Positions 45,042 to 62,981 of a stretch of 64,000 nt of DNA are shown here, piece after piece (the first letter of the stretch is position 1; each line of letters begins with the position of its first letter). The translations under genes were made by a program, and so were the position numbers. The DNA is from a bacterium (lineage in GTDB: Bacteria > Hinthialibacterota > Hinthialibacteria > Hinthialibacterales > Hinthialibacteraceae). The stretch covers positions 9,554-73,553 of the forward strand of contig CAXXSM010000140.1 in the NCBI GenBank assembly GCA_963663405.2, given 5' to 3'. Under the pieces are notes generated by a model, which saw nothing but the letters and a program-made list of their open reading frames with translations, was not told the origin of the DNA and ran no database searches.

Positions 45042-45356
45042 TCTCCTCAGTTATTATATTGATTTCATACCAATTTGATGGAGTTCTTAAATCCTATAGA
45101 GGATAGCAAGAAATCAAAGTTTTTGGACAGGGAAGGGAATTAGGTCCGGTACTGATTCATCATGAGAGAGATATCCTCATTCTATTCGATTGATTCTGCA
45201 GATAAAAAACAGAGAAAACTTGTACTCCTTATAAAAAGTGAGTACTCTTGCTAAATAATTACTTTTAAATTCGTTTTCGATTGATCTTACTCGGTTTATT
45301 GGAACTTATTCTTTGTATGAAAAGAATCCGTCCAGGTGAAAGAAACTCAATACATC

Positions 45357-46544
45357 ATGAAAAAGAAAAACAATTCATTTCCTACATCGGAAGAGATTGT
45401 AGAGATCCTTAGTAAAAAAAATGAAGCTCTTGCTCGATTGTTGACGGATGAACTTCTTGAATTAATGATGGCGAACGCTGTGGTGAAGCGGTATCCCGTC
45501 GGCAAAGAAATTATTAAGCAGCATAAACCATCTGATTCTCTTTATATCGTTTTAGAAGGACGCTGTCATGTGTTAATCAATGATGAGTTGATCAGCCAAA
45601 TGGAAACGGGAGATTTATTTGGTGAGATGGGCGTGATTCAAAATATGCCAAGAAGCGCGACAGTCATTACGACGGAAAAAACCCGCGCGCTTCGAATTCC
45701 CGGCGCCGATTTTAAAAAGATGTTATATAATCCGAAATTGGCTCAGTGGATAATGGTTCTCCTGACCGATCGCTTAAAACGCAGTTCCCTTGACGCTGTC
45801 CGCGCAATGAAAGAAAAAGAGGAGATTCTTCAGGACCAAATAGAACTGGCGCGCGTGCAACGCTCGCTATTGCCCAATGAACTGCCAACCGATATGCGTG
45901 TCCGGCTGCAAGTGCTGTATTCTCCCTGTACATACGCCGGAGGGGATTATTATGATTCGATTTTACTCGATCATGATCGTCTTCTGCTAATCGTCGCGGA
46001 TGTCACAGGACATGGGGCCCAAGCTTCCATTTCCATGGCGATTGTGCGCTCCTTTATTCATCAGCCCAACATAGGAAAAAGAGCGTCAACCATTCTCAAA
46101 CGATTGAATAACTATCTTTTGGAATACGGTCCCTCACAACATTTTGTCACCGCGCAGGTTGCAATCCTGGATTTAAATACGCGGAAACTCCAATACGCGT
46201 ACGCAGGGCATCCTCCGATTTTGCTTTTGCGGAATGGTGTTTGCAAACCACTGCCCGCGCCCCGCGCTTATTTTCTCCGTTTTCATTGGGACGCGTCATA
46301 TGAATACTCGACAATTTCATTGAAACCTGGAGACCGGATCGCCCTTTTCACGGACGGAGTTGTCGAGACCTTCAATCCTTCGGGCGCGATGTTCAACATG
46401 GAAGGATTACAGAATTTAATCGTGAATACACGAATGAAATCCCTTCCGGAAATTCCTTCTCTATTAGAAGCGGAACTAAAACGCTTCCGGAAAGGCAGTC
46501 CCGTAGAGGATGATATTACATTTCTAGTGGCGGAAATACAATGA
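45357..46544 (+). CDS. Cyclic-nucleotide-binding domain plus PP2C/SpoIIE phosphatase
   Basis: FGEMG...PRSATV (cNMP domain); GGDYYD, ADVTGHG, AGHPP, FTDGVVE, DDIT (PP2C). Confidence 0.92.
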   Translation: MKKKNNSFPTSEEIVEILSKKNEALARLLTDELLELMMANAVVKRYPVGKEIIKQHKPSDSLYIVLEGRCHVLINDELISQMETGDLFGEMGVIQNMPRSATVITTEKTRALRIPGADFKKMLYNPKLAQWIMVLLTDRLKRSSLDAVRAMKEKEEILQDQIELARVQRSLLPNELPTDMRVRLQVLYSPCTYAGGDYYDSILLDHDRLLLIVADVTGHGAQASISMAIVRSFIHQPNIGKRASTILKRLNNYLLEYGPSQHFVTAQVAILDLNTRKLQYAYAGHPPILLLRNGVCKPLPAPRAYFLRFHWDASYEYSTISLKPGDRIALFTDGVVETFNPSGAMFNMEGLQNLIVNTRMKSLPEIPSLLEAELKRFRKGSPVEDDITFLVAEIQ

Positions 46545-46587: not shown

Positions 46588-47265
46588 TTATGAATTCTTC
46601 GCGGTGATCTGGCTGTAGTCCAATCGGATTTCAATTCTCCGGTTGATTTTGGATTCGATTTTATCTTCGAGGGGCTGGTATTCGCCATAACCGATCGCGG
46701 AGATGCGATTCATTTCTAATTTTACATTTGTATTATCCTCTTGAGATAGTTGGTGAAACAAGCGGACAACCGCTAAAGCCCGTTCACTGGACAATTCCCA
46801 ATTATCCTCGTAGCGGCCACTATGGATAGGCAGGCGGTCTGTATGCCCTTCCACTTCAATTAACAACTTGGGATGACCATATTCGGTTAGAAATTGCGCG
46901 AGGTGGGTTAAGACTTCCCTTCCTCTTGGTTGTAGATTGGCTTCCCCTTTCACAAATACAATGTCAGCAGAGAAACGTAATCGTTGTAAACTGCCTTTTC
47001 TCTCTTCTGTAATGGCGCCTTTTTCAATGGCTTCTTGAAAGATTGAGTTTTCTCTGAACTGCCGCCAAAACAACTCTTGTTGCTGTTTTCGTGTGAGTTC
47101 ATCAAAAACCTGGGACAATTCCAAGAACTGCGCGACTAACATAAAGACAAAAAACAAAACGAGAGCCATGGAAATATCCGAAAAGACAGGCCATACATCA
47201 TCCGTGCTTGAATAGGCGCTGTCAATGAATGGATCGTGTCGATATCTATGGTTGCGTTTGCTCAT
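46588..47265 (-). CDS. MotB/OmpA-family stator subunit (ZorB-like)
   Basis: Single TM with a conserved Asp (VWPVFSDISMALVLFFVF); OmpA-C motifs IVFVKGEANL, IEVEGHTD, NWELSSERALAV, NRRIEI. Confidence 0.9.
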   Translation of the reverse strand: MSKRNHRYRHDPFIDSAYSSTDDVWPVFSDISMALVLFFVFMLVAQFLELSQVFDELTRKQQQELFWRQFRENSIFQEAIEKGAITEERKGSLQRLRFSADIVFVKGEANLQPRGREVLTHLAQFLTEYGHPKLLIEVEGHTDRLPIHSGRYEDNWELSSERALAVVRLFHQLSQEDNTNVKLEMNRISAIGYGEYQPLEDKIESKINRRIEIRLDYSQITAKNS

Positions 47266-47273
47266 GAAAACAT

Positions 47274-49130
47274 TTATCTTTTCGGTTTCAAAAATGTAAA
47301 TAGATTAGAAATTCTCTGTCCCCATCGTATGTTTTTCTCACGGATCGATTGAGTAAGAAGCAGAAGCGCTTGTGTTGTTTTTCGTAATTCCGCATGCAAT
47401 GAATCCTGCTCTTGATTGGTTTCAGAAGATTGTTTTGTTCGCGTGGATTCACTGATTGACGTTGACAATTCATTGGATGGCGCATTCGGAATGTTAGCAA
47501 GGTTTGTTTGATTTACATTCATTTCATCAACGCTGTCTTTTAATAGATTCCATGATTCGATTGATGTGGAATCACGATTGATCCGCTCTAAAATCTTGGC
47601 CGCTTTATCCATTTTCTTGTGTATCGCGATCATTTCTGTTTTGATTTCAATCAGTGGATTCACAATTACATTCGGGAAGACCGATAATTTGTTATTCAAG
47701 TTTTTCAGTGGGAAGTGCGCCGCTTGTTCTTCCAATCCTTTTTGCAAAGAATCAACATGTTCCCGGATTGATTCCACCGTGTGTGCAAGAAGCGCCGCTG
47801 GTGGACGAAATTCGGCAGTGAATCTATCTGATTGATCGGCCATCCACGCTTTCATGTCATCCAATCGGATTTGTACATCACGTATCGTAGTCTTTAAATC
47901 GGATAGATTCGAGATCCCCTCGTTTTGAATTTGTGATAAATTGACATCCATGTCAGAAGACGCCTGATCAATGCTGGATTGCAGGCGGTTCAGCGCAGGA
48001 ACAATTTGCTGTATTTGTTCTAGTTCTTTGCTATTGAATTCTGTAATTTGTGACCAGTGTTTCGCAAGTTCCTGCTCCAACACCTTTCCGATTGTTTTAA
48101 CGACTTCTAACCGGAGTTCACTTTCAGGTGTAATTTTCGCGATGGTATCATTGAGCTGATTGATACGTTCGCGCATAAAACCGAGTACATGATTTGTTTT
48201 TTCCGCGGCGTCAGAAAAATAACCGGCTGCGTGTTCTAAGCGATCGATGACTTCTTGTATATTGATTTGTCGATCCGCCGCAGTTTGTACAGCGGAGACC
48301 AATTGCACGCAGAGTTGGTTGATCGCATTGGATGTGCTTTCCACTGTTTCTGTGAAGGTCTTTTCCACTACTTGGCGGCTGACGGTTTCCACCATTTCTC
48401 GAATCGATTGCAGTAAATCATCATTATCCGGCGCCGCCAGTGGCACAATGGATGTAGTCAAGATCGTATCCACTTGTTTGAGTAAATGATTGTTCATCCA
48501 GCGGGAAGCGATTAAAAGCGGTGATAGAACCACTGCGCCGATGACTCCAAATAATGTGGTTGTAAAGGCCGTGCCCAATCCGGAAAGTGTATTTCGTAAT
48601 GGTTCACGCAGGTTTTCAATACTTGTGAGGGATTCGATATCAAAATATACATTTTGAATAGCCATCGTGAGACCGATCAATGTGCCGATCAGGCCTAATA
48701 AAATACACATGCGTTGAAACAATTGTAACAATCCTACAGGCTTGTAACGCGCAAGGCTTAATTCCACGACATCATCGACTAACCGGCGCGCAGAATGGCG
48801 ATCAAGCCGTTCAATCATTCGAATTGCATTTTTAAGGACAGGGACATGCCAACAGATTTTTCGCAATCGTGCAATTGTATCTTCTGTGCCGGAAGAAGTT
48901 GAATTCATTTTTGAAATACGGCTATGAATCCAACGGATAGCGGCGATCGTATATCCCCGCCATGAAAATTGAATGAGAAATAGGATAAATCCTATATCCA
49001 CTATCCAGCGGATTATAAAAATAATGTATTCCGCTTCAGCAGATAAAGAAGTGAAGATACTTTTTTGAAAGTCAATTGGCAAAAAAGAAAACAAAAAATC
49101 AGTCAGCATTGAACTGTATCCAGTTGACAT
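47274..49130 (-). CDS. MotA/TolQ/ExbB-family stator subunit with a ~400-aa helical C-terminal tail (ZorA-like)
   Basis: Three TMs including LLGLIGTLIGL and LSGLGTAFTTTLFG, then a long heptad-rich tail. Alternative start at ATG 49109. Confidence 0.88.
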   Translation of the reverse strand: MSTGYSSMLTDFLFSFLPIDFQKSIFTSLSAEAEYIIFIIRWIVDIGFILFLIQFSWRGYTIAAIRWIHSRISKMNSTSSGTEDTIARLRKICWHVPVLKNAIRMIERLDRHSARRLVDDVVELSLARYKPVGLLQLFQRMCILLGLIGTLIGLTMAIQNVYFDIESLTSIENLREPLRNTLSGLGTAFTTTLFGVIGAVVLSPLLIASRWMNNHLLKQVDTILTTSIVPLAAPDNDDLLQSIREMVETVSRQVVEKTFTETVESTSNAINQLCVQLVSAVQTAADRQINIQEVIDRLEHAAGYFSDAAEKTNHVLGFMRERINQLNDTIAKITPESELRLEVVKTIGKVLEQELAKHWSQITEFNSKELEQIQQIVPALNRLQSSIDQASSDMDVNLSQIQNEGISNLSDLKTTIRDVQIRLDDMKAWMADQSDRFTAEFRPPAALLAHTVESIREHVDSLQKGLEEQAAHFPLKNLNNKLSVFPNVIVNPLIEIKTEMIAIHKKMDKAAKILERINRDSTSIESWNLLKDSVDEMNVNQTNLANIPNAPSNELSTSISESTRTKQSSETNQEQDSLHAELRKTTQALLLLTQSIREKNIRWGQRISNLFTFLKPKR

Positions 49131-50371
49131 GAATGTGTTTTGAGCACAGGTAGATAAGCGATCGAATGATCCCGCCTGTTATGTATTGTGATAATATCGG
49201 TCCATAAATCCTGCGAAGGTCTACAGGGAAGATACAAGGTTGTTCGTATTGGATCAGAATCGTCCATTTCTACTTCTGTATTTTCTAATTCTGGTGGGAA
49301 ATAGAATAGTAAATCCATACCATCTCCACGAACATCATTAATGGATTTGACAAGAATAGAGACGATCTGATTGTCCGTATTCCAATTGATCAAAGGTGGA
49401 AAAATATTGAGTCTTTGACGCTTAGGGAATTGAATGATGCGCTTGCGATTTGTGATAATCGTTTCATCTGTTTCAACAGTTACGTTATAGGAAAATATAT
49501 CTGAGTCACGACCGCAGGAAAGTTCGATTGTATTAATCGGAGAAGTGTTAGACAATAATAAATCTTGTTTTATGTGCGTCTTTCCACCCTTTTTCCGTAT
49601 CCTCGCTTTAACAGGCCGTTCTCCGATTAATTTTAATCTTAACGTATATCGATCGAGATGCTCATCATCAAATTTATCCAACTGATGTTCTATCGTAACC
49701 ATTGGCGATTGCAAGAGAAAGACAATAGTTGTTTCGAGTTCTGGAATTGATAATCGGTAACGTATAGGTAAATTCGTTGTCGGTAAATCTGTATTCGTTG
49801 GATATCGCACTAAGAACGTATTTTTTGTAGTCTTATCACACTCAATATAGAGACCCAGCGGATTTTTATTAAGTAAATTCAGTAATAAAGGCTGTGGCAT
49901 TGAAATCAGAAAACCAGGATTAAACATAACATAACTTAAAATTCCTCGAGAATATAGATAAACATTATGCCGAATTGAGGGGAGAGGGCTTGATAGACGT
50001 TTTTCATTCGTAACAATTCCAATTTTTAGATCCCTTATTACTTCATCAAATCGCAGCCAAATCCCTTCCGTTGAGTCCCACTCGTATTGGATCGGATAAT
50101 CCTGTATATAGCCATTCCTATCTAAAATGTATTTACCTGCAATCCATCGATTTTTAGAGAGCGCTCCAATACAGAATTGACCATTTCCACCAGTTACCAA
50201 TGTTAGCTCAGAATGAGATTGGAGACGAACCTTGTATGTTTCGGATAGAGGCAATTTCGGTGGGATATGACCTAAAGGTTCTAGTTGTAAACGATCGATA
50301 TCTACGGGTGTGGCAATGACTCCCGAATTGGTCCAGATTGTTTCATTCAATGAAAAAGATATGTCATTCAT
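49103..50371 (-). CDS. Hypothetical beta-rich cytoplasmic protein, tightly linked to the MotA-like gene
   Basis: 422-aa ORF that overlaps the next gene; no recognisable motif, signal peptide or TM. Confidence 0.75.
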   Translation of the reverse strand: MNDISFSLNETIWTNSGVIATPVDIDRLQLEPLGHIPPKLPLSETYKVRLQSHSELTLVTGGNGQFCIGALSKNRWIAGKYILDRNGYIQDYPIQYEWDSTEGIWLRFDEVIRDLKIGIVTNEKRLSSPLPSIRHNVYLYSRGILSYVMFNPGFLISMPQPLLLNLLNKNPLGLYIECDKTTKNTFLVRYPTNTDLPTTNLPIRYRLSIPELETTIVFLLQSPMVTIEHQLDKFDDEHLDRYTLRLKLIGERPVKARIRKKGGKTHIKQDLLLSNTSPINTIELSCGRDSDIFSYNVTVETDETIITNRKRIIQFPKRQRLNIFPPLINWNTDNQIVSILVKSINDVRGDGMDLLFYFPPELENTEVEMDDSDPIRTTLYLPCRPSQDLWTDIITIHNRRDHSIAYLPVLKTHSCQLDTVQC

Positions 50372-50379
50372 GAGCGCAA

Positions 50380-51867
50380 TTATACTATCTCTACATCAGG
50401 TTTACGAAGAATTTTTTTGGTTGATCGCCAGTAGAATCCTCTGTGTATGACTCGTTTGATACGCCCATTTGTTTTAGGATCAGCCCAGGTTACTAATTGA
50501 TGTTGAGCAGGATTGAATGGCTCTCCATGAGAAGGTTGCATGATTTCAAGATCAAACAATTCGGCAATCTCCAGAAAATGATGAACAAGGGTAGTATAGA
50601 ATTCTTCGGCTTCTATTGTGTCCTGTTCCTGTTCTTCCCATTGATATACATAATTTAAAAAATATTTCTGCACGACGGTTGGAAGAAATTGGTTTTTCTG
50701 AGCGAGTGGTTTACGTGTGCGAATCGCTTTGGAAAATGCTTTGTCAATAATAACAAATATGTATTGCATGAATCCACTTTCATCACGAGTAAGAGACATC
50801 GCATGTCGATATTCTCCATGCTGATAAAGCAGTTCGCGATAATCGTTGAAATCCGATAAAAATTTTCCAAATTCTATCATTAAATCATCCGCAGACAGTT
50901 GAAAAGGCAATACAGGTCCGATATTGGAAAGAAATTCATACAAATTATCTCTAAAGTTTGTTACGAAGGAACTTGCGGATGGATTCACTCTGAGAAGTAT
51001 CATGATAGCGCCATTTTTTTGATCCACTTTGTTAAAGAATTGTATCGCAATATCAAAATCCTCCACATCGACGCTGCAATAATTCTGAATATCCTGTGTT
51101 TCCAATTTCCACTTGGCATTCATAAACTCAGTCAGATCGTTGCACTGCTCACGAACACGCTCTACAGGTGATTGCGCGCGAAACTGGAAAGATTGAGATT
51201 GATTGTCAGTTTTCATCAAAGAAATCGATTCAGATATAGGTTCAGGTTCTTCATGCTCTGCAGATGAATACCGATCGTTTACGATTTTCCCTGTAACTTC
51301 TGGATGTTGAGTAATAAGTTTTTCTAGAATCTGAGATAGTTTCTTCTCCCGGTTAAAAAAAATCCAAATCATAATAAACCAGGAAATCATTATAATGCAA
51401 ATAAGAATAGTAAATATTATTAAGTAAAAAGAAAAATCGGAAGTACCGGCTGTGTCGTAGTCAGTAGAATTATCACTTGGTACTTGTCTTGGCTCCGGTA
51501 ATGGTTTCAATTTATTTTCATTTATGAATATCAGTATAGGATAATAACCGGAAGGGATTCCATATAAAGCGTACGTCTTTGTATTCAAAACACACAAAGA
51601 TGGAAAAAGAGAGGATAAAATCGATGAAGGGACATTCAACCAAAAGGAACTTATATTATTCTGAAAATCTATGGTTGAAGATGAATTGATTATTAGAGAA
51701 GATATGACTGGACTCGGTGACTGTATTTCAGTATGGTTTCTTGCAGTATTATCGTGATTCTCAACTGCATAAGATTGATGGAGAAACAGAGGAATGAAGA
51801 AGAAAGAAAACAGGAAGCATAAATACATGATTCGAACAGTTTTTGTATACCCAAGCGATCTATACAT
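50380..51867 (-). CDS. Membrane protein with a C-terminal GrpE-like head domain
   Basis: Signal peptide, extracytoplasmic segment, TM (FYLIIFTILICIIMISWFIMIWIFF); C-terminus GEPFNPAQHQLV...GRIKRVIHRGFY...ILRKPDVEIV matches the GrpE pattern G-x-x-F-D-P-x-x-H...G-x-I-x-x-V...G-Y...R-x-A-x-V-x-V. Confidence 0.72.
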   Translation of the reverse strand: MYRSLGYTKTVRIMYLCFLFSFFFIPLFLHQSYAVENHDNTARNHTEIQSPSPVISSLIINSSSTIDFQNNISSFWLNVPSSILSSLFPSLCVLNTKTYALYGIPSGYYPILIFINENKLKPLPEPRQVPSDNSTDYDTAGTSDFSFYLIIFTILICIIMISWFIMIWIFFNREKKLSQILEKLITQHPEVTGKIVNDRYSSAEHEEPEPISESISLMKTDNQSQSFQFRAQSPVERVREQCNDLTEFMNAKWKLETQDIQNYCSVDVEDFDIAIQFFNKVDQKNGAIMILLRVNPSASSFVTNFRDNLYEFLSNIGPVLPFQLSADDLMIEFGKFLSDFNDYRELLYQHGEYRHAMSLTRDESGFMQYIFVIIDKAFSKAIRTRKPLAQKNQFLPTVVQKYFLNYVYQWEEQEQDTIEAEEFYTTLVHHFLEIAELFDLEIMQPSHGEPFNPAQHQLVTWADPKTNGRIKRVIHRGFYWRSTKKILRKPDVEIV

Positions 51868-51890
51868 AATAGAATCCTAAATAGAAGTAA

Positions 51891-53390
51891 TCATCCAAGT
51901 CTCACCGTAGGTTTGCGAATGGGATTGCCTTGGATCCGTTTGACTCCTCGTCTTACGATCGATTGAATACGGCCTGAGTTAGAACTCGATTCCTGTGCAA
52001 ATTCTTCCAGCGTATGTTGAAGAGGATCAAAAGTATCATGGATTTTTACATCCGTCAGTTCCATTCCCAGTGGTTTTAATAAAGAACTTAGATAATCCGT
52101 AAGGATCGGTGATAATTCGGGAATTGTGTTGCTATATTTCTTTTCTAAAATTTCAAGTTCATCAATATGTTCCATCACATCAACTTTCGCGATCCGATTC
52201 AATTCTTCCGTCAGCGTTTCGATAGAAATGTGTGAGGATTGAATTTCATGAATCGCATCCAATAGAATTGTATTATAAAAGGAAAATACATAGTGACGGT
52301 AGGCAATAACTGGGTCCAATCGATCGTTCGAAGGGATATCTTCTTTCCCTATCAATCCCACAATCGTATGATAATAATCCGAATGAAGAAACTCGTTATA
52401 TTTTTTGGGATTCTGATCAGTAAAATTAGGTATTTTTGTCACTCCAAACATGGCGTTGTATTTAGACTGGATCTGCTCGCGAAATCCCCCTACTTTAAAT
52501 TTGAAGGCGGAATGGGATTGTTCAATAGTTTGAATCGCAGGATTATCCGGCGAAAAAGAATTGATAAGCGTGTTAAACGCAATGAAAGCGGGATGATTTT
52601 CTAAGTCTGGAATCAAATTCAATTGCGCTTCCCGGATGCATTTATATTTATTAACAGAAAACGCACGTTTTACAAGTTCTATAAATTCCTGGTAATCCTC
52701 TTGCGCTTTACGGTGATCGCTTACAGACAATAAATCATGTTTAAGAGAACGAATTTCATTCTGAAGGATGCGATTGTATGTTTCACCAGTCTCAATGGTT
52801 GATAGTTTTGAAAAGAGTTTGTTAAATGATAATTCTGTTTTGGAAATGAATTCAACTACTTTGCTATGTTGATTGTTGAATTGATTCAGAAAACCTTTGT
52901 AGCTTACAGACAACGCGTTCAGTTGTTCTGATAGATATGTGAATTGATCCGATGAGTTTGTTGATGGAAATGAGATTATATTTTTTTGCTCTGACTTATA
53001 ATCAGATGTTGTATTCATGGATAAAGATATTTTTACTATATATTTGCGATCAATTGGATGTGGCCAAATTTGTAGATTAAAATGTACTTCATCAAAATCT
53101 TCCGGCTTTGATAATTTAATATAATATCTTGATTTGAAGATACCATTATAATAACTTAATGGACATTTTTGTTTGTTTTTGTTTAGGATAAAATGGCCAT
53201 CCACAATATTAAAATCATTAGTGCGTTGAATTTTAGGAATCAATTGTATATAGTTACTATGTTCGTCTGGGATAAAATCGATGATGCCTTTCTTAACGAT
53301 AGGAGAATTGTGATTTGCGCGTAAAATTTCATAAAAAATAACATATTCTCCTATTATTATTGTATTTTCATAACATTTCATTGGACGCAT
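51891..53390 (-). CDS. Coiled-coil protein with a C-terminal GrpE-like head domain
   Basis: Heptad-rich middle; C-terminus LGMELTDVKIHDTFDPLQHTL...GRIQSIVRRGVKR...IRKPTVRLG. Confidence 0.72.
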   Translation of the reverse strand: MRPMKCYENTIIIGEYVIFYEILRANHNSPIVKKGIIDFIPDEHSNYIQLIPKIQRTNDFNIVDGHFILNKNKQKCPLSYYNGIFKSRYYIKLSKPEDFDEVHFNLQIWPHPIDRKYIVKISLSMNTTSDYKSEQKNIISFPSTNSSDQFTYLSEQLNALSVSYKGFLNQFNNQHSKVVEFISKTELSFNKLFSKLSTIETGETYNRILQNEIRSLKHDLLSVSDHRKAQEDYQEFIELVKRAFSVNKYKCIREAQLNLIPDLENHPAFIAFNTLINSFSPDNPAIQTIEQSHSAFKFKVGGFREQIQSKYNAMFGVTKIPNFTDQNPKKYNEFLHSDYYHTIVGLIGKEDIPSNDRLDPVIAYRHYVFSFYNTILLDAIHEIQSSHISIETLTEELNRIAKVDVMEHIDELEILEKKYSNTIPELSPILTDYLSSLLKPLGMELTDVKIHDTFDPLQHTLEEFAQESSSNSGRIQSIVRRGVKRIQGNPIRKPTVRLG

Positions 53391-53400
53391 TTTATCAACC

Positions 53401-54421
53401 CTACTGCATTAATATAGGAAATTCAAAATAGTCTACAAAACGGCCAAACGAACCAGTCAGGCAAGTTTGTACACGCCCATCCATAAGGCGATGAGATTCC
53501 AGTACAACCTTTTCGGGAGCCATATACAATCGGCGCTTTTTTAGGTTTATGGTTTTAAGAGGATGCAATGCTATACCCGGATAGCCGAACCAAAATTCAA
53601 CAAACGGGATTACACCGTTGGAAGAAGTGAGAGCATCTATCCGGCCTCCTGTAATTGGATCTTCTTCATGAATTAAAGGCAGAAAATCCCACAATCCATG
53701 ACGAATACCAATCGCTCCATTACGACGGATCGATATTGTACTAAATCCACTACGAATTTCATCTAAATATAAGGAGACATTTTTGAGAGCTTGCTCCGTT
53801 GTTGAATCTAAAATGAAAGGTACAGAACTGGAAAGATCTCGAGAAAATACAAGAAAACGGTTATGCGCGTTCTCACTCGATTCATCCCGAAGTTGGTGTT
53901 GAATCACTGCTTCACTATGCAAATTATTATGCTGGACAGTAATCCATGACGCTTCAACTACACATTCCCGCTGGCGAAGAACGATAATGGAATCATTGTG
54001 ATTATTCTCCTTGATAGCGGCTAATGCAAATAATGGCGCGCCATCCGCGAAACAACACTCCCCCTTTCCAGCCCAAATGAGTCAGGAGTGAACTAAGGGA
54101 TTCTTGAGTCGATGTTGATACTCCAGTAGGGAGCATCATAACTAGCCAATCACTTTCATTCATTTGACGATTTTTTAGAGCGCGTGAAAAAAAGGGATGA
54201 AGAGCGGCGGCGATTTCGCTTGATGGTAATGTATCTATGAATTGCGCAGGATTTGAAATTACCACTCCTTCATAGGATGAGGGGGGCCACGGACCGCCAT
54301 CCCAAATCAATCCCTCTTCTGTTTTACGTCCAAGCCAGCTATCAGGAATGTGGCCGGAATTTCCATCGGAATCGGCCCATGCTGGATTTACGGGACAAAA
54401 ATCAAACACGAGTGTAACCAT
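53401..54421 (-). CDS. Degenerate Hsp70/actin-fold protein (one frameshift near 54050)
   Basis: ATG 54421 lies 7 bp after the Hsp70 stop. TLVFDFC...LVMMLPTG...TQESLSSLLTHLG; a frame change in the T run gives FADGAPLFALAA...SIIVLRQRECVVEASWI and joins ORF 53401..53922. Confidence 0.55.
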
Positions 54422-54428
54422 GATCGGC

Positions 54429-57400
54429 TCAACAATCGGAAAGGATTGTATCCTTACATGCATTAATCGGAGGCCATAAGGAATAGGGCTCCAACTCCGC
54501 GCCGTGACTGGGATTCGGTTCGAGCGTGACGCGCAGTTCCTCATCCCGTGTTAAAATCACCTTCATCCGCGCGCTTTCAATCTGTTCGTCTGTCCATCCA
54601 TCGGGAAGAATTTGAAATTTGGCTATATCGCGAAATTCCTGATCTTTTTTACCAGTGATCAAGTTTGAACTGACTTGTAAATTGATAAAAGATTCAACCA
54701 AGGTGACCGTTTTCCCACGGCAAAGAGGAAAATTCTCACATACCGCTTCCGCGGGGAGAGGCGTCAATCGATCGATAACGGGAATGTAACCTTTGGATCC
54801 GATGATCCGTCCACGAAGGAAAATATAGACCCGGCTTACGCGATTCATTTCAACGTTTATATATTCGCGCATGTATCCATAGATGGCGCTTCCCATGGCG
54901 ACCGCTTCTTTGATGTTCGCAAGAGGCACAATCTCAACAGGTTTTCCATCATTGGCTTCCAGCACAGCTTGCCGAAGCATCTCTTGGATTAAAGGCATAC
55001 GGCTGGACTGACCGGACATCAATACTTTGGTGAGAGAACATTGGGAATCCATCTGTTTGACATTCCGGATCATGGTCTTGGCTTTTTCAAGCGCGCCGGA
55101 TAACGCCTGTTTGATCTGGGATTCGATCGCGTCTTTTTTGCTGACAATATCCGTAAAAAACTGGATTCGCTTTGGTTCGCTGTCAGGATTCTTTTTCTCA
55201 ATTCCACTGACCGATATATTCATCTCATCGGTCGAACCACTGGTGAAGATGTATATTTTTAGCAGTTCGGCTATCCAGTATAAATTCCAATAATTCAAAG
55301 TCGCTAAGTTGGTATACCGGCCCGATTCTTGAGTCAGTGTTTCTATACGTGAATATGGAATGATTATGGCGTCTTCTTCCTCATTCTCCGATTCTTCCCA
55401 ATCCGTATTTGGATTCGCTTGTATAGATTTAGCACGGTTTCCCACAGTGGACTTTGTGGAGAGTTCAGATAAATCTAAAAGTTCCTCTTCATCTTCGTCC
55501 GGCGACCAGATCGGAAATTCATCATTCCTTGCGTCAAACGCAGTATTCGCGTTAGAAGCAGAAGGATTCTGTTCTCGTCGGTTCGAGTTTTTTCCATTCG
55601 GAAAAGTGGTTTGATATTCCTCTTCTCTTCCATTCGCCACGTTTTTAGCGCGCCTGTACAATTGTTTCTGAATGATCTCCGTTAGATATTCCCCTCCCAA
55701 ATCGTTCGTGCCGTCAAAATCCAAGTGACGGATCGAGATTCTCTCACTCACCGCGTCGTAAGTGACTTCGCAAAGGGTCATATCAATTGTCCCCCCACCG
55801 AAATCAAACACAAGAATGATCTCTCGTTCGTCCGGGACTCTCGCTTTGCTATTGGATTCGAAATAACGTCCAGCGACTAAGTAGTATAACAAAACGGAAG
55901 ACGCTTCATCGATGAATCCAACAGACAATTGATTGGGATTAATATTAGACGCTTCCGTGCTCTTAATTAGCGCGTCCCGCAAGGCCAATCGCTGCTTGGT
56001 CCAAAAGCGGACGGGATGACTCAGTATAACATGAAGATAATCATATCCTGTTTCCTCCCGTGTGACGGTTAATAAGTTTTTCAAGTAATCATAGGCGATG
56101 GAATCGACTGTTTTATTCTTGACATTGGGCATAAAGGGAAAATGATGATGAAAATCCAGTCCAATTTTGGGTTTAAAAAATGTAATGGTTTTATAGCCAA
56201 TTTGAGGAGACGCCTGCAATGCGTCGAGCGCCGGTCCTCCCACCTCTTCGACTTCCACTTCCTTACTTTCCCATTCTGACGCGAAACCTCCCGCCGCCCG
56301 GTATTTCACAATCGTCGGCACAACGATGGGATTATCTTTATTGCACCCTTTCCGCTGGATCAGAGGAGGGAGGGGAATCATCTCTGGAAGATTGTTATCG
56401 TTAATAATCGCCACACAAGAATTGGTATTGCCGAAATCGATTCCCATCGGCAGTTCCCACTCGATTTGGCACACGACAATCTCCATAGGAAACGATTTTG
56501 TAAATGAGGGTTCGGGAATCTCATCGACTCGAATGTGGATACGGAATTCGCTTTTTTCTCCAGCGCTATCCCACTGTGTCATATCCAACGTTATTTTCCC
56601 TAGAAAAAGGAGCCGTTCGCTCTCCATCGCTTTATCCACCATGAGCGGGAATGGTTTATTGGGGATAAAAGCGCTATAGACGCCGTGTCCGGTGATATGT
56701 TCGGGGAGTTCCACATCGATCGCGTCAATCGAAAACACGCGCCGGCTGTGGTGTTTCATCCATAATTCAAACGAACGCTTACAGCCTTTCAAGATCCGGG
56801 GGGTGATGCCTTCCGGCAGTTCCAAGTAGATTTCAAATTCAGTCTTCGGGATGTAATGGAGAGTGAACGTGTCCGTGAAAACGGACGCGCCCATTTCAAC
56901 GATGGGGACTTCCAGCCGCACCGTTCGTGTTGTCACGCCTTCTGAGAAAAACGATTCCAGATCCGCGACATGAATGGGAATCGGCAGGTTGACTTTTAGT
57001 TGGCGCGTTGAAATATCTTCTCTTTCGACAGTGGCGGTTTGATTGGTTTCTATATTGTGTAAAACGATGTTCTCTTCGTGCGAGAGCGTTAGGTCTCTGT
57101 CAAGAGAGACGAGGTTAAATTGTATACCCTTTTTGGGATCCGCGATACGCAACAGGCGGAAATCCCCGCTAATCTGAACATCTACGCGGGGAGGCGGTTT
57201 CAATGGAATCTGGACCGGATCGACTTTTACACCGGATTCAGCGCGGTCCTCCGAACCGGTCAAAAGGTGAAATGTGAGTAATTCAGCAAGCCGGGCGTTT
57301 TCATGGAGTGGAATGGTTAGGGAAATGATTTCGCGCGACTTGGGGGCGAGGGAAACGGGCCGTGGGAAGTCGATTGTCCGTTCGTCCTCAGACGCGGGCC

Positions 57401-57644
57401 GGGGGGATCTCCATTTCAATCCACGCGCAGTGATGGATATACTGCCAGTATTTTCAAGCAGCAGATTGACGCCGATCTCCTCACTGCCCCGTATCCAGGG
57501 CATTCGCGGCCCTTCCTGCGGTTGTACACTTAACGTACGCAGCCTCCGGCCGCAAAATCCACAGAACGAGTCGGTCTCCGGATTGACCGGCCACTTCAAC
57601 ATGCAGGGACAATGCTCGACTTGGTTCTCTTTCATATTCCACAA
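54429..57644 (-). CDS. Atypical Hsp70-family ATPase with N-terminal Zn-ribbon and Ig-like domains
   Basis: CPC...FCGFCG at the N-terminus; ATPase motifs MGIDFGNTNS, FFKPKIG, SHPVRF..KQRLAL, FIDEAS, VFDFGGGTID, LGGE, AELLK, SGQSSRMPLI, KEAVAMG. Likely start ATG 57635. Confidence 0.9.
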   Translation of the reverse strand: MWNMKENQVEHCPCMLKWPVNPETDSFCGFCGRRLRTLSVQPQEGPRMPWIRGSEEIGVNLLLENTGSISITARGLKWRSPRPASEDERTIDFPRPVSLAPKSREIISLTIPLHENARLAELLTFHLLTGSEDRAESGVKVDPVQIPLKPPPRVDVQISGDFRLLRIADPKKGIQFNLVSLDRDLTLSHEENIVLHNIETNQTATVEREDISTRQLKVNLPIPIHVADLESFFSEGVTTRTVRLEVPIVEMGASVFTDTFTLHYIPKTEFEIYLELPEGITPRILKGCKRSFELWMKHHSRRVFSIDAIDVELPEHITGHGVYSAFIPNKPFPLMVDKAMESERLLFLGKITLDMTQWDSAGEKSEFRIHIRVDEIPEPSFTKSFPMEIVVCQIEWELPMGIDFGNTNSCVAIINDNNLPEMIPLPPLIQRKGCNKDNPIVVPTIVKYRAAGGFASEWESKEVEVEEVGGPALDALQASPQIGYKTITFFKPKIGLDFHHHFPFMPNVKNKTVDSIAYDYLKNLLTVTREETGYDYLHVILSHPVRFWTKQRLALRDALIKSTEASNINPNQLSVGFIDEASSVLLYYLVAGRYFESNSKARVPDEREIILVFDFGGGTIDMTLCEVTYDAVSERISIRHLDFDGTNDLGGEYLTEIIQKQLYRRAKNVANGREEEYQTTFPNGKNSNRREQNPSASNANTAFDARNDEFPIWSPDEDEEELLDLSELSTKSTVGNRAKSIQANPNTDWEESENEEEDAIIIPYSRIETLTQESGRYTNLATLNYWNLYWIAELLKIYIFTSGSTDEMNISVSGIEKKNPDSEPKRIQFFTDIVSKKDAIESQIKQALSGALEKAKTMIRNVKQMDSQCSLTKVLMSGQSSRMPLIQEMLRQAVLEANDGKPVEIVPLANIKEAVAMGSAIYGYMREYINVEMNRVSRVYIFLRGRIIGSKGYIPVIDRLTPLPAEAVCENFPLCRGKTVTLVESFINLQVSSNLITGKKDQEFRDIAKFQILPDGWTDEQIESARMKVILTRDEELRVTLEPNPSHGAELEPYSLWPPINACKDTILSDC

Positions 57645-57726: not shown

Positions 57727-60700
57727 TTACTCTATGTGAGGATAATTCTCCTGTTCGATGTTGGAATCGGAAAATAAATTTGTATCCCGTGTTGTCTCCA
57801 TCTGCTGCGATCGGATTTCTTCAATGAACAAAGTATTAATCAATCGATCACCGAGTTCACGAAACCGTTTTTTCTTATACAGATTGGTCTCGTATTTCGC
57901 CAGATTCTCATTAATCACGGCTTGAACAATCTCAATACCGATCAACGAGATGACGTTCTTGATGCGTTCGATAAAGTCCAGCGACGCTTGTCCTTCATCC
58001 ACTAGCGCAAAGTTTCCAAGGTCCTTGTCCGCGTGTAAATTGACTTCCTCCGAGATGCCGTTTCGGCTGATGTAGTAATAGGTCACATCTCTTGTTTTCG
58101 CGTCCCGGTTTAAGAAACTCTGCGTCTCCAACTGCTCCCAAAAAAGATCGACGATATCCACCCAAAACGTGAGTTCATCGATGATTTTCCGCAGTTTCGG
58201 GTGATAGTGCAATGCGCCGATTTTGTGGGTGTAATGATTGGCGTAGGGAGAATGCGCCTGATTCTGCGCTTCAGAGCGTCCACCATGACGGAGCAAGTGA
58301 TCCAGGTCATCTGCAATCAGCCAATCCTCCAGCGATAAAGCGGCCGCTTCATCATAAAAAATCACCATGTTGTCCAACGTGCATTCAATGGTTTCAAACG
58401 AGGGCAGTTTGGGATCGATCGCATTCAATTGATTCTGCATTTCAACAAGACGGGATTTTGAATGACGTGGGCCTATGATCATATCCGGTTCGTCACATCC
58501 TTTGTTGGGCACTTCGCCTTGCGGGAACTGAAGCCAAGGGATGCAGCCACGGGCGACCTCGAGTTTGGTTTGATTGGAATACCGGTCGGTCTCCAATTCA
58601 TCGAGAATGCTGATCGGTTGCGCCGTGCGCCAACATTCGGCTTGATAATATTTGAGAAGCAGTTTTTCCGCTTCCTCCGCGTTTTTAGAGATGAACTGAT
58701 TGAAACTGATTCGTTCCATTCCGTCTTGCAGGAATTCCTGATACACATTGATATGGCGATGTTTATTTTTCACGACATTGGCGAGTTCTTCGGCGTCCGC
58801 GGCGAGCACGCCCTTCTTAGTCACCATCCGCATGCTTCCCAAATCTCTCTCCCGGATGATTTCATTCCAACGGTTCTGCAAAGCGGGCGCGACCTTGTTT
58901 TTCAACCGGTTGAAGCGGTCTCTCATCTGAAGACGAATCGAGGCGGTCTCTTGTTGATATTCACCTCCCACAAGGTTCTCTCCGAGAAACTCTTCATGCG
59001 CTTCTTCACAGATTTTCCGCATTACGGCGCCAGCGATATTCTCGATTTGTTGTTTGAGTTTCTCCGAGATATTATCAATCGCCCGTTCAATGTAATACCG
59101 CTGAACCGGCGCGCGGGCCATTAAAATCGATAGCCATAGGTCTTTGCAGACATCTTTGAACCGCAGAGAAATACCTCGTAAAGAGGGCCAGGGAACACTC
59201 AACGGCTCTACTTTTACGGGCAGTTCGTTGATTGTTTTTTGCATAAAGGCAGGGAGCAAATCGAGATATTTAACGATCTCTTCCACACTGCTCCATTGCC
59301 CCTCGGCGATCTCATTCGTATGACGCTCCGCTTTTTTCTGGATAGCGTCCAATAACTGTTTCTTTAATTTCCGCGCTTCGGCGAGAAAATGATTGTGCAG
59401 GGCGCCGTTCGGTTGCAACGCGTCGATAAGATTTACATTCCCTCCTTGTACATTGGGGAGCGTTAATTCGTTCTTTAGAAGAGAAAGAATCGCTTGCGCC
59501 GAATTGACAGAAGCGAGGGATAAGGCGGTATTCACCTGTTCGAGCGTATGCGTCAGGATATTGAACTCATTCACTTCCAGCAATTGACTGCGGATCGTTC
59601 CATAGATCTCTTCCCAGTCTCCTTCCGCGCACTTGTTCGCTTGATTCAAATTGCCTTCTTTCGTCCATTCATCCACAAGAGCGAGGCTCAAGTGACAGGC
59701 GGCGGCGGTGGCGATCATGAATTTAGGATAGAAAAAGCCGGACAGGCCGTGCGATTGAATCTGCTGAACGTACATTCCATTCTTTGAACGGCGTCCAATC
59801 TCTTCTGTGATTTCGTATTGCGCGCGCTGTTGATCTTTATAGGCCCGCACTTGCGGGACTAAATCTAAATAAAGTGATGTCGAAATCGAAGCATGCAACG
59901 CGCTCAGATCGTAATCCTGCCCGTTCCACGTAACGGATCGGATCCCGCTGTCATTGGACGGCGAGATAATATTCATAAAGGTATAAGGGCCTCGGTCATT
60001 CGGTTGGGGAGGAAAATTGGTGGAGTCATCCAATGGATGTTTGATATAGTAATGATGATCCCCGCTGGCCCAATAGTCATATTCAACCATCGCAGCCCAG
60101 CAGTTCATCGAACAGACAACATCCGAACGCTTGCGGCTCATGACCATGCTGCGGTCTACCACCGTAAACGTGCCATGCACGTAGGAATCATTGATCGCCG
60201 CGTCCAACAAGGCTTCCTGCGCCATATAGCCCACTTCCCAAAACGTGCCCGAGCAGGTTCCCCCGCAGAGAGAGCCGCAGATGTAAATTCGGAATGTCTG
60301 TTGGACCAGTTCTTCATCCGGACGCGGGATATTTTGGGAATCGTAATGCTGTTCCAACATGCGGATGGTTTCATCCCGTCCTCCGCGCGCGTTGTTGATG
60401 GCGGAGACTAAGGATTTATAGACACGTTCCCAGTTCGCCCATAAACAAAACCGTCCAGCCATCCGCCAGCCCCGCGCGCCTGATTCAAACGCCGTGCCTG
60501 ATGTCACTTCTTTATCCAGCCAATCGGACCAACCATCATGGAAATCCGGGCTTCGTGGATCAACTTTGCTTTTCAGTTGATTGAGTCCTTGGCGGCTGAC
60601 GGTGAGTGGAATTAATTGAAGCCTTTGCCAGGGCTTGTTCTGATCCGTGACATAAATATCCATTGTGGATGATGGACGGATGGAGAGCGTTTCGAGACTC

Positions 60701-60820
60701 AAAAAACGCATGCAAGGGCAAACCCGGCACGCCATATTCTTCAAACAACAGGCGGCGCACTCCTTGAATGATTTCCGTTCCCGATGTGCCGAGTCCGATG
60801 AAGACTGTAGGCATAACCAT
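57727..60820 (-). CDS. Tubulin/FtsZ-like GTPase (Tubulin_2 / FtsZl1-type) with a long helical C-terminus (one frameshift near 60715)
   Basis: RBS AAGGAG then ATG 60820: TVFIGLGTSGTEII; after an indel, RFLSLET...GARGWRMAGR...ICGSLCGGTCSG (tubulin signature variant)...NCWAAMVE; about 1030 aa in total. Confidence 0.88.
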
Positions 60821-60831
60821 AATAAATCTCC

Positions 60832-61192
60832 TTACCGCCTCTGTTTTTCCGCAGCCCGTACATAGTGCGAATACCTGGGATTAAATATGAGTTGAATTAA
60901 AAACACATCCAATAGAATGCACCCAATATATACCAACAATGTGGGCCACCAATCCCAGAAATTCTCCGTCGGTCCTAGTTTTCGAAACCAGAGGATGTAT
61001 TCCACGATCCCCGTAATCAAGCCCGCGAACATATGCAAATAGATCAGGTTGATGGTCCCATCGATAAGCGCTGGATTCCGGTGTGCCTTTTTTCGTTGGC
61101 CGTCCGCGTGGCAGTATCATTTCTAGAAGTAGAAACGCCACAACCAATCCACCGAAATACCATAGTAAAACAATCGTTACGTCCATATTCAT
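60832..61192 (-). CDS. Small multi-pass membrane protein (frameshift near 61040-61060)
   Basis: RBS AAGGAG; TM1 in ORF 60881..61192 and two further hydrophobic segments in ORF 60832..61038; ends 11 bp before the tubulin-like gene. Confidence 0.6.
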
Positions 61193-61221: not shown

Positions 61222-62981
61222 CTATTGTATGTGGCCGTTCTTTTTGAAGGGTGGGCCAATCGATTTCAAAGATAACTTTCTTCGGTTTTGGTTGAAATGC
61301 GTCTTTCTTCTACAACGGGGATGGGATCGCTTGCCGTCGTTCCTGGGTGGAGGGGAATTGTCCACGCGGTACGCTGGTTTCGATTCATCCTCATCTTCAA
61401 TCTCATATTCCTCGAGTTCAATTTCCCGTTGATACGCGATATCATCATCCACAACTTCTACATTGCCCGAGAAGAATCCCCGCTTGTATTGTATCGACAA
61501 CGAATTCACTTTTCGATCGGGGAATTCCAATTCGTTGTTTATGATAATCGTATCTCCCCCATTCATCTCTACGGAATTTGATGCGATTTTATTTCCTATA
61601 TCACTAACGAGATAGCCTTTGATCACGATTGTTTTGGGAGGCCGTATTCTCCACTGGATGTATAAACCACCAAAAAGCGCAATAACAGCGATCACCACAA
61701 GCACAATCCAGAACCAGAATGGATTCACCGGCTGGAACTTGGCGTTAAATTGGCTTTTCGTTAGCGCCGATATACGTCCTGTCGGATCGTTGAAGGTAAA
61801 TTGCGTGGAAGCAGGCCATTCCCTTCTCTTCGATCGTAGCGAACACAAGCGAACCGGTCGCAGGAAGAAGCGTATCTCCTTTAAAGGCTAAAAAACCTTC
61901 CGCGATTATCCGCCCTTCATTATTGTGGAGACGCGCTTGAATCGTCGGAATAGGGACTTGCGCCTCAGGAGCTTTATTCACATAAAGCCCAATCGGTTTG
62001 GATTCGATCCGTCCGCCTCGCTGAAATAAGATCACTTCCGATTGTTCCACTTGCATGGTGACTTCACAAGGAGTCGGCGTTGTTGGAGGTTGTGTAGGAA
62101 TAGGTGTATTCGTTGGTGGAACCGGTGTTTTCGTCACTCGAACTGGCGTTGACGTATGCGGGGGAGCGGCCGGTATGACGGTCGGCATCAAGAGTTTCAT
62201 CATGCCAGATCCGGTCCGCCTTAATCATAATACGATGCGTGAAGGAAGGATCGGATGGAACGCATGGAATGACGATCTCAAACAACGCCTGCCGTTTTTT
62301 CTTCAAATTCTGGTGCTTGGTCACATACGCGTCGGTTAAATTTGGATCGTATCCTTCCGGCACGTTATCGGTGACCAACACTAGGTAGGTGTCATTGGTG
62401 TCTGGAATCATAGACTGTAACGCTCGTGGATGTTCGAACGCGTCAATCTGCGGCCGTACCCAATTTGTTTGCAGTCCCATGTAGCGAGAATCCTGGCGGT
62501 CCGGACGGGGTAGAAATTCCCGCAAAAGGGAGAGCCGGTCTCCACTGGGGGGGAGGATGCTCTCGTACAATGAATAACCATATCGTTCCCGGTTGAATAG
62601 AAACGCGGTCAGCAGCGTTTGATCGTCCACTAAAGGCCCAGCGGTTTCTTGCCGGGGAACATACCAGGTCCATTGTGGATCGTTGGCTCGTGGTTGTATT
62701 CCATGAAACAAAAGTGCGAATACCCGGTCATGTACAACCTGCAGTTCTTCATTACTCACCATCCAAACCAGCCTTGGAGGATTTATGTTTCGGTTGTACC
62801 GCTTGAACCATGCTCTGAGAGCAGTCCCCAAAGGAGCACGACACGCTTCTTGTAAGGTTGGGAGGATACATTGGATTCGGCGGCTGCGAGAAACATCGCC
62901 GTTATGCAGAAAGTGGAAAGCCATCCACCAACGCTCCCCATCCATTGTGTCCAAAGGTTCCCCGCCATTCTTTTTCATCAT
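61222..62981 (-). CDS. Exported vWA-domain protein with Pro/Thr linker, TM anchor and acidic cytoplasmic tail (several frameshifts; 3' end approximate)
   Basis: Fragments: signal peptide WLSTFCITAMFLAAAES; KKRVVLLW|DCSQSM (MIDAS DxSxS after an indel in the run at 62826-62829); YLVLVTDN; PTNTPIPTQPPTTPTP; TM FWFWIVLVVIAVIALFGGLYI; EIELEEYEIEDEDE. Confidence 0.65.

Follow-up and report, generated by a model that had tools for sequence, protein, structure and literature searches.

Long GrpE-like proteins, one of them predicted to be membrane-anchored, in an operon with Hsp70-like, tubulin-like and ZorAB-like genes

Introduction

GrpE is a small, soluble and general co-chaperone that serves as the nucleotide-exchange factor of DnaK. 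Why, then, should GrpE-like modules form the ends of two proteins of some 500 residues, one of which appears to span a membrane? The question arises from a stretch of 64,000 nucleotides (the window; positions 9,554 to 73,553 of the forward strand of contig CAXXSM010000140.1, assembly GCA_963663405.2) of an uncultured bacterium of the family Hinthialibacteraceae. Two adjacent genes on its minus strand, called here G1 (50380-51867) and G2 (51891-53390), had been described in an earlier note on the DNA as tandem GrpE-like genes beside an Hsp70 gene and proposed as a receptor-type exchange factor, with a predicted complex with the Hsp70 ATPase domain among the suggested checks. Profile searches and fold comparison of the predicted models identify the ends of both proteins as diverged but complete GrpE modules, and the homology and the fold can be regarded as established.

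The ends of G1 and G2 are diverged GrpE modules

Both open reading frames lie exactly where they had been placed, and both carry the C-terminal motif that had been noticed, as FNPAQH...GRIKRVIHRG...LRKPDV at the end of G1 (495 residues) and as FDPLQH...GRIQSIVRRG...IRKPTV at the end of G2 (499 residues). G2 precedes G1 in the direction of transcription, with 23 nucleotides between them. By BLASTP the alignment of G1 with G2 is confined to the C-terminal end (61 columns, 33% identity, E-value 2e-4). Comparison of G1 by hhalign with a G2-family profile built without it extends over ~215 residues, with family positions 284-500 equivalent to G1 residues 280-493 (50386-51030; probability 94.9%, E-value 4.7e-8). 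This long profile alignment argues that G1 is a diverged paralogue of G2, related to it beyond one shared small domain. G1 was found only in this genome and in a near strain, while G2 has as its orthologue the one GrpE-like gene present in each of the related operons described below.

The homology to GrpE is detected by profile in both directions. The Pfam family PF01025 (GrpE), with a gathering cut-off of 25.8 bits, matches G1 with 20.4 bits (E-value 4.5e-4; residues 427-494, the GrpE head, on profile positions 97-163) and with 22.4 bits in a six-frame scan of the genome; full-length G2 gives no match and its last 110 residues alone give 13.3 bits. A sub-threshold match is found at the equivalent place in four orthologues from related genomes. 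When the last 110 residues of eight family members were searched, all eight matched PF01025 at E-values of 1 or below (best 2.3e-5), and no other family was matched by more than one of them. The profile of these eight ends, searched against the PDB, is led by Thermus GrpE (3a6m_A, E-value 1.7e-6), followed among the GrpE chains by those of Mycobacterium tuberculosis (8gb3_E, 3.3e-3) and Geobacillus (4ani_A, 0.17); the remaining seven rows of that search are non-GrpE proteins with E-values of 0.053-2.9, two of which outrank 4ani_A. From the opposite side, a full-length family profile of nine sequences was searched against 1.84 billion representatives and gave 45 matches at E-values of 1e-3 or below, about a dozen of which are long family members or their fragments. 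Below these stand 33 matches (P0013-P0045), and 31 of them carry PF01025 above its cut-off, the exceptions being P0013 and P0022. Word-based homologue searches with G1 and G2 returned only the query itself (in 5.8 billion clusters for G1).

Comparison of the predicted structures points to the same fold. The top row for the G2 model by VIA-align is 1dkg_B, the E. coli GrpE from its complex with DnaK (Z 7.8, root-mean-square deviation (rmsd) 12.3), with 146 of 151 residues aligned and model residues 346-499 placed on chain residues 38-193; five further GrpE entries follow at Z 5.6-6.5. For the G1 model GrpE entries fill the first seven rows (Z 9.6-5.8), ahead of the best unrelated row at Z 5.4. 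The high rmsd values are attributed to the hinge in the long helix. A Foldseek search with the whole G2 model returned nothing at an E-value of 0.001 or below, with GrpE chains at ranks 21 and 27. Structures of GrpE with the DnaK ATPase domain, taken by title, were used for comparison (PDB 1dkg, 8gb3, 4ani and 9bls). On profiles and folds together, the assignment of both ends to GrpE made in the earlier note holds.

Domain layout and membrane topology

G2 is composed of an N-terminal β-sandwich (residues 5-127; 53010-53378), a disordered linker, a helical region of ~190 residues (156-345) and the GrpE module (346-499; 51894-52355), in which a long helix is followed by a pair of bundle helices and a small β domain. 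The AlphaFold2 model has a mean predicted local distance difference test (pLDDT) of 69, with values of 75-95 across residues 223-499 and of ~55-65 in the β-sandwich. Fold matches of the β-sandwich are generic (carbohydrate-binding-module-like, and the receptor-binding domain of TcdA1, at Z 6-7), and the domain is conserved in the family as far as its distant members P0008 and P0009. G2 contains no hydrophobic segment, in keeping with the soluble protein that had been described; its supposed purely coiled-coil build gives way to the β-sandwich followed by the helical region.

In G1 this front part is exchanged for a signal-like segment, an outside stretch and a transmembrane helix. Hydropathy analysis finds two hydrophobic segments: a signal-like or anchor segment at residues 10-31 (51775-51840; hydropathy 2.18, N-terminal charge +3) and a transmembrane helix at residues 140-174 (51346-51450; hydropathy 3.03), with a flanking charge of -4 before it and +2 after it. 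These flank charges place the C-terminal 320 residues, and with them the GrpE-like end, inside the cytoplasm and a Ser/Thr-rich stretch of ~110 residues outside, a predicted topology that agrees with the one first proposed. The G1 model has a mean pLDDT of 55, with a helix at residues 144-187, values of 75-91 across residues 394-494 and ~30 in the outside segment; the β domain of the GrpE module is modelled at ~90 in both proteins. A random frame at 34-36% guanine-plus-cytosine (GC) content would meet stops at ~7% of codons by simple arithmetic, so an open frame of 495 codons is far beyond chance.

With ~350 residues beyond the GrpE module, both proteins are more than twice the length of the ~200-residue canonical GrpE. 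Compared with 18 canonical GrpEs, the family retains the G..FDP..H motif, the V..(R)G motif and the last strand with its final V, and these three elements are conserved in the distant members P0008, P0009 and P0012 too. Among the 43 other library matches, P0011 and P0022 have two hydrophobic segments ahead of the GrpE-like end, and P0018 has N-terminal hydrophobic segments. P0011 (536 residues) combines a signal-like segment with a transmembrane helix, and its PF01025 score lies above the cut-off. Judged from these sequences, membrane-anchored GrpE-like proteins may be a recurrent, undescribed build.

The Hsp70-like neighbour and its predicted pairing with the GrpE module

The Hsp70 that had been noticed nearby belongs to the same operon and is encoded by a gene of 1071 codons (54429-57644, minus strand). 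It matches PF00012 with 33 bits, above the cut-off, and gives partial matches to the NCBIfam DnaK and HscA models. Its ATPase domain (residues ~395-935, with a variable acidic insert) is followed by a short β end that resembles a substrate-binding domain, and a helical lid is missing. Residues 1-390 hold a conserved zinc-ribbon-like motif, CPC...CGxCGRR (CxC...CxxC), and a β-rich extension of ~350 residues for which no family match was found. The phosphate- and adenosine-binding motifs (GIDFGNTN, FDFGGGTID, GQSS and EAVAMG) are kept in all four Hsp70-like orthologues, as are the Lys and Glu positions (FFKPKIG and IDEA). The public gene call P0046 (1024 residues) of the Hsp70-like protein starts too late and loses the zinc-ribbon-like motif; the orthologue P0047 carries the source label 'Hsp70 family protein [Candidatus Omnitrophota bacterium]'.

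No J domain was found by Pfam in any protein of the operon, in the window or in its relatives, and the six matches in the genome all lie on other contigs, which bears out and extends the earlier remark that the operon lacks one. All four Pfam-significant GrpE paralogues of the genome (on contigs C76, C129, C165 and C89) adjoin an Hsp70 paralogue, and two of these pairs (C129 and C165) also stand with a J-domain gene. Four GrpE-Hsp70 pairs make an unusually large set of Hsp70 systems. Several more Hsp70 pieces or paralogues occur without an adjacent GrpE (C40, C45 and C23).

The complex that had been suggested as a check was predicted with two copies of G2 residues 346-499 and Hsp70-like residues 395-935, both supplied as alignments. 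The score is 0.59 (runs 0.00, 0.68 and 0.59) and the best of three controls scored 0.00, which supports the pairing weakly. The mark set for this score is reached by 116 of 157 solved complexes and by 2 of 215 mismatched pairs, and at 0.60 or under stand only 18 of the 157 solved complexes together with both passing mismatches. The runs agree in at least 0% of contacts, with a partner pLDDT of at least 68. Since GrpE-DnaK complexes have already been solved, the pass may reflect memory, that is, likeness and not binding.

Related operons and distribution

In the window the operon reads, on the minus strand, membrane protein, 131-residue protein, tubulin-like GTPase, Hsp70-like ATPase, 340-residue protein, G2, G1, 422-residue protein, ZorA-like and ZorB-like subunits, with spacers of 8-23 nucleotides. 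Relatives were sought among 20 genomes of the bacterial family and in the phylum, represented by 35 genomes in the collection. The same gene order with one G2-type GrpE-like gene is found in two family genomes (G006, locus L008, and G019, locus L009) and on a metagenome contig (L124), which carries all nine genes intact and was located by a scan with the tubulin-like alignment that also gave a 1.1-kb fragment. In the window and in these three operons alike, 1-2.6 kb separate the GrpE-like gene from the Hsp70-like gene upstream of it. A further genome, G014, has the system split over two contigs, one with the tubulin-like, Hsp70-like and 337-residue genes and the other with the GrpE-like, 429-residue, ZorA and ZorB genes.

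Of the 20 family genomes, the same 4 (G000, G006, G014 and G019) contain the tubulin-like, the Hsp70-like and the ZorA-like gene, and the remaining 16 are 85-99% complete. In all four system-bearing genomes the GrpE-like gene has a fixed position, between the 340- and 430-residue genes or directly before the 430-residue gene, ZorA and ZorB. Each of the three related operons has just one GrpE-like gene, which is of the soluble G2 type, so G1 is a lineage-specific extra. The receptor role that had been proposed can thus apply to G1 at most, and the single gene of the relatives speaks against it as a general role. The membrane component common to all copies, which the earlier note had missed, is the ZorA/ZorB-like stator pair, and the tubulin-like GTPase is likewise a core part.

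The long GrpE-like family itself is found in 8 of the 20 family genomes, in one of them (G001) only as two fragments, and in none of the 15 other genomes of the phylum. A third family member of the genome under study lies on contig C88 (L022:10260-11747) and adjoins a Na/Ca exchanger gene; the solo copies in G012 and G009 follow a B12-binding radical SAM gene, and the one in G011 has an internal TAA stop. Outside the genome under study the solo loci are L023:10221-11762, L024:9217-10677 and L026:9936-11366. A tree of 13 family members leaves 7 of 10 inner branches unresolved, with long branches for G1, G2, P0011 and P0012, and gives no order of events. A metagenome scan with P0008 and P0009 found no relative, and a word search with the Hsp70-like protein found two orthologue clusters only. 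A scan of genome contigs with the Hsp70-like alignment was uninformative, as its generic DnaK patterns led to 80 ordinary DnaK loci.

Other genes of the operon and its surroundings

The ZorA-like stator subunit (47274-49130, minus strand; 618 residues) has three hydrophobic segments and is made up of a MotA/ExbB channel domain and a helical cytoplasmic tail of ~400 residues. It matches PF01618 (E-value 1.9e-6) and the PADLOC model ZorA1 (E-value 1.1e-9, spanning residues 114-379), and four ZorA3 models match too. The ZorB-like subunit (46588-47265, minus strand; 225 residues) matches the PADLOC models ZorB3 (E-value 1.1e-24) and ZorB1 (4.1e-21) and PF00691 (1.8e-13). It has an Asp (FSDISMAL) ahead of its single transmembrane helix (residues 23-55) and an OmpA-type peptidoglycan-binding domain, and is 57-58% identical to its orthologues.

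The tubulin-like GTPase (57727-60826, minus strand) matches PF13809 with 80.3 bits (E-value 2.1e-22; cut-off 27 bits). This Pfam family, Tubulin_2, we take to be the FtsZl1 family of Makarova and Koonin. The main open reading frame spans 57727-60744 and includes a helical C-terminal extension of ~650 residues; the first ~55 residues with the GxGTSG loop are read in another frame (60665-60826). The protein is 50-53% identical to its relatives.

Four further conserved proteins are encoded on the same strand. The first gene of the operon (61222-62981) encodes a membrane protein of ~520-630 residues with a Pro/Thr-rich linker. In the window it is present as three fragments (62064-62981, 61745-62203 and 61222-61848), whose three frames are matched in tblastn by the intact relatives L008:44-1609 and L007:70-1299. 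The 131-residue protein (60844-61171), with no assigned function, is split over two frames by an extra base at 61057. The 340-residue protein (53401-54421), also with no assigned function, is read as two frames in the window through an extra base at 54050 and is a single gene of 337-344 codons in relatives. The 422-residue protein (49103-50371), of a family called here the 430-residue family and again with no assigned function, always lies between the GrpE-like gene and ZorA and is 23-24% identical to the 429-440-residue proteins of L008, L124 and L025. Pfam gave no match for the 340-residue, 422/430-residue and first-gene proteins in the window or in relatives; profiles of these three families against PDB sequences gave nothing below an E-value of 0.16, and an Atlas look-up of the 422-residue protein gave scores of 0.80 or less and no lead. 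By hhalign the G2 family shares no domain with the Hsp70-like family (E-value 0.86) or with the 430-residue family (0.9).

The other 30 open reading frames around the operon are metabolic or regulatory by a Pfam scan (PADLOC was not applied to them), and the idea of a defence-island context was not borne out. A cyclic-nucleotide-binding SpoIIE/PP2C phosphatase gene (45336-46544, plus strand) lies 43 nucleotides past the ZorB-like stop on the opposite strand and is not conserved beside the related operons. Elsewhere in the window a GH43 glycosidase (20834-21842) reads as two overlapping frames, and a sigma-54 activator (19685-20479) ends after 264 residues within its ATPase domain; each looks like one more single-base error or else a genuine break.

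State of the locus

The frame breaks in the window were compared with Logan contigs of four runs (three studies). The extra base at 54050 is lacking in X1, X3 and X4, and its removal restores 345 open codons to the 340-residue gene; that at 61057 is lacking in X3 and X4, and its removal gives 121 open codons for the 131-residue gene. The extra base at 60714 is lacking in X4 only, a relative ~97% identical, and its removal joins 1050 codons including the GxGTSG loop. At a depth of only 2-3 fold, these three breaks are probably assembly errors. The two break points of the first gene are not covered by contigs of other assemblies. G1 and G2 show no indel in any contig, parts of them being covered by three public runs from two studies. 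Decay of the operon was considered and largely dropped, with the breaks at 54050 and 61057 absent from contigs of other assemblies (for 54050 including the Logan contig of the best-holding run). A 32-base stretch within G1 (51674-51705) recurs, but for 2 differences, in long contigs of high depth that belong to other organisms; this holds for all four runs (contigs of 66.7 kb in X1 and X2, and of 19.5 kb at depth 77 in X4), and the match is probably due to chance or low complexity.

G1 and G2 lie in a low-GC block (48.8-54.0 kb; GC 0.28-0.39 compared with 0.42-0.56 in the flanks) that spans the ZorA 5' end, the 422-residue gene, G1, G2 and the 3' half of the 340-residue gene, and whose upper edge is near the frame break at 54050. 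GC at third codon positions is 0.30-0.32 in this block as against 0.52-0.56 in the Hsp70-like and tubulin-like genes. The low-GC genes are the least conserved of the operon, with G2 18-28% identical to its orthologues. The block may be a swapped cassette or a product of local fast evolution.

Relation to known systems

Relative to GrpE (PF01025), the last ~150 residues of G1 and G2 share the order of long helix, two bundle helices and small β domain, the G..FDP..H, V..(R)G and terminal-strand motifs, and the placement of the gene near an Hsp70-type gene. They differ in length, in the β-sandwich and helical region added in G2 or the signal-like segment, outside stretch and transmembrane helix added in G1, and in the sub-cut-off match without the helix signature R..A...N...R; the presumed partner also differs, being a lidless Hsp70-like protein of 1071 residues with no J protein.

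Zorya types I-III comprise ZorA and ZorB together with ZorC and ZorD, ZorE, or ZorF and ZorG, and ZorAB is a proton-driven sensor with a long tail. The operon has in common with Zorya I-III a pair of subunits, the first MotA-like with a long helical tail and the second MotB-like with the Asp and an OmpA-type domain. Its other partners are different, namely tubulin-like, Hsp70-like and GrpE-like proteins and four proteins of no known family, in metabolic surroundings. PADLOC, run on the nine operon proteins, found no ZorC, D, E, F or G, and its only other match was of the Hsp70-like protein to PDC-M61B (E-value 0.0043).

Passages of Makarova and Koonin 2010 (PMC2875224) link FtsZl1 genes to genes for OmpA-family proteins, von Willebrand factor A (vWA) proteins, GTPases and lineage-specific membrane proteins, and propose membrane remodelling for these operons; the words Hsp70, DnaK, GrpE and MotA are absent from its main text. 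The present operon likewise combines a Tubulin_2 protein with an OmpA-family protein and membrane proteins, and it differs in that the vWA protein and the GTPase of those operons were not found here by Pfam. Passages of Kaur et al. 2020 (PMC7159879) describe multi-gene DO-GTPase/GAP1-N2 conflict systems in which a tubulin theme and an Hsp70-plus-GrpE theme are built around DO-GTPase and GAP1 cores and do not overlap; these systems occur mostly in actinobacteria and firmicutes, are often membrane-associated and commonly have N-terminal zinc ribbons. As far as those passages go, the tubulin-like and Hsp70-plus-GrpE accessory parts and the N-terminal zinc ribbon are shared with our operon, which differs in having both themes together and ZorAB-like genes in addition. 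Pfam, used with no profile dedicated to DO-GTPase or GAP1, found no GTPase family in the operon proteins of the window or its relatives. In a literature search with subscription journals and supplements outside its scope, no description was found of ZorAB or Zorya joined with Hsp70, GrpE or tubulin, nor of membrane-anchored GrpE-like proteins. The gene set is rare and no published description of it was found, and G1 and G2 are a new GrpE variant within it.

Discussion

We lean, with some reserve, to the reading that G1 and G2 are dedicated nucleotide-exchange adaptors of the operon's Hsp70-like ATPase, with added domains that would set the place and time of exchange. The homology, fold, topology, gene order and co-occurrence described above, with the lack of a J domain, lead us to infer that the GrpE module would dock on the ATPase domain of the 1071-residue protein and control its exchange of ADP and ATP, in the way GrpE acts on DnaK. 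The added N-terminal regions may position this activity, that of G1 at the inner membrane and that of G2 on other components, most likely the 430-residue protein and the ZorA tail. The placement of G2 is suggested by the G2-type gene travelling with those genes, as seen in the split of G014 and in gene order only. The whole operon could then encode a stator-driven (ZorAB-like), envelope-linked machine with the Hsp70-like ATPase and the tubulin-like GTPase as its working parts in the cytoplasm. Gating of the ATPase would fall to the GrpE-like proteins, which would replace a pair of J protein and GrpE.

Several observations weigh against this reading. In the ATPase domain of the Hsp70-like protein, a large and variable insert stands at the place of subdomain IIB of DnaK, which GrpE grips. 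The verdict of the complex prediction is weak, with one of three runs at 0.00 and no interface given. Both G1 and G2 score below the PF01025 cut-off. In the family the long helix is without its R..A...N...R signature (at least 70% kept in the 18 canonical GrpEs), HEA is reduced to its H, and GY is missing in most members; the changes in the helix signature and in HEA could mean a different contact surface or a loss of exchange activity. Some copies of the long GrpE-like family, four or five in number, are solitary and have ordinary neighbours. The ones in G009, G011 and G012 and on C88 of the genome under study lie away from any Hsp70-like, ZorAB-like or tubulin-like gene, and searches of G001, G009, G011 and G012 with Hsp70-like, tubulin-like and ZorA-like queries gave no match. 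G1, absent from all relatives, evolves fast (branch length 2.86 in the family tree), and differs between the window and the X3 strain by 27 codon changes that fall mostly in the linker at residues 188-226; of these, 19 are non-synonymous and 8 synonymous, as counted at low depth on the 31 differences that were listed out of 35. Finally, no RNA run stands among the sequencing runs listed for the locus and no expression data were found.

The stand-alone copies, and the lack of the system in some of their genomes, indicate that the long family is not bound to this Hsp70. They favour the alternative that survives best, in which the long GrpE-like proteins are a lineage-specific co-factor of housekeeping or other Hsp70 paralogues, their place in the operon is secondary, and there is no special link to the Hsp70-like or ZorAB-like proteins. 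This alternative would account for copies set in metabolic surroundings (beside the Na/Ca exchanger on C88 and the B12-radical-SAM genes of G012 and G009) and for a family present in 8 of 20 genomes when the Hsp70-like, tubulin-like and ZorA-like genes are present in 4, and the Hsp70 paralogues on C40, C45 and C23, with no GrpE beside them, also fit it. We nevertheless think it unlikely: the GrpE-like gene holds its fixed operon position in every system-bearing genome, the spacers in the window are tight, and each of the four other GrpEs of the genome sits beside an Hsp70 of its own.

A second possibility, to which we give rather less credence, is that exchange has been lost and the module is a pseudo-GrpE, a docking or dimerisation scaffold that would hold or inhibit the Hsp70-like protein, or a coiled-coil stalk. 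The lost helix signature and HEA, the sub-cut-off match, the missing J domain that a normal Hsp70 cycle would use and the long helical regions all fit such a scaffold, but the family-wide retention of G..FDP..H, V..RG and the terminal strand, down to P0008, P0009 and P0012, and the confident modelling of the β domain (pLDDT ~90) argue against it. It is very improbable that G1 is a tandem duplicate in drift with no separate function, its receptor look being the product of a replaced N-terminus, for although it has no relative in the word search or in related operons, a long branch, clustered non-synonymous changes and a poorly modelled outside segment, its 495 codons are open at 36% GC, the X3 contig covers 967 nucleotides of it with no indel and with no stop among the 27 readable changes, its GrpE end is well kept (pLDDT 75-91, with GrpE as top fold) and the same build recurs in the unrelated library proteins P0011 and P0022.

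The task of the machine may be viewed in two ways. A conflict system like Zorya would agree with the patchy distribution and with middle genes that vary, and a part in envelope or membrane remodelling would agree with the metabolic neighbourhood and with the literature on FtsZl1. A bolder and doubtful extension, which we would not expect to hold in full, is a chain in which the ZorAB-like proton motor would act through its tail and the 430-residue protein on the GrpE-like factor, this on a J-independent giant Hsp70-like ATPase, and the ATPase on a tubulin-like polymer. Such a chain might serve Zorya-type defence with a cytoskeletal or chaperone effector instead of a nuclease, or envelope remodelling, and G1 might give it a direct outside input.

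With homology and context established, the finding is of more interest in its operon than as it was first described. The GrpE module here suggests an output end of large proteins, one of them membrane-spanning, tied to a dedicated Hsp70-like protein without a J protein; should regulation act on the exchange step, Hsp70 would be a switch here and not a folding machine. The intact nine-gene copies of the operon (L124 and G006) are small enough for expression and testing. With a chaperone-fold ATPase and a tubulin-like GTPase taking the place of nucleases beside a ZorAB-like stator of the 5:2 type, the operon bears on what stator units drive outside flagella and Zorya, and on what FtsZl1 tubulins do.

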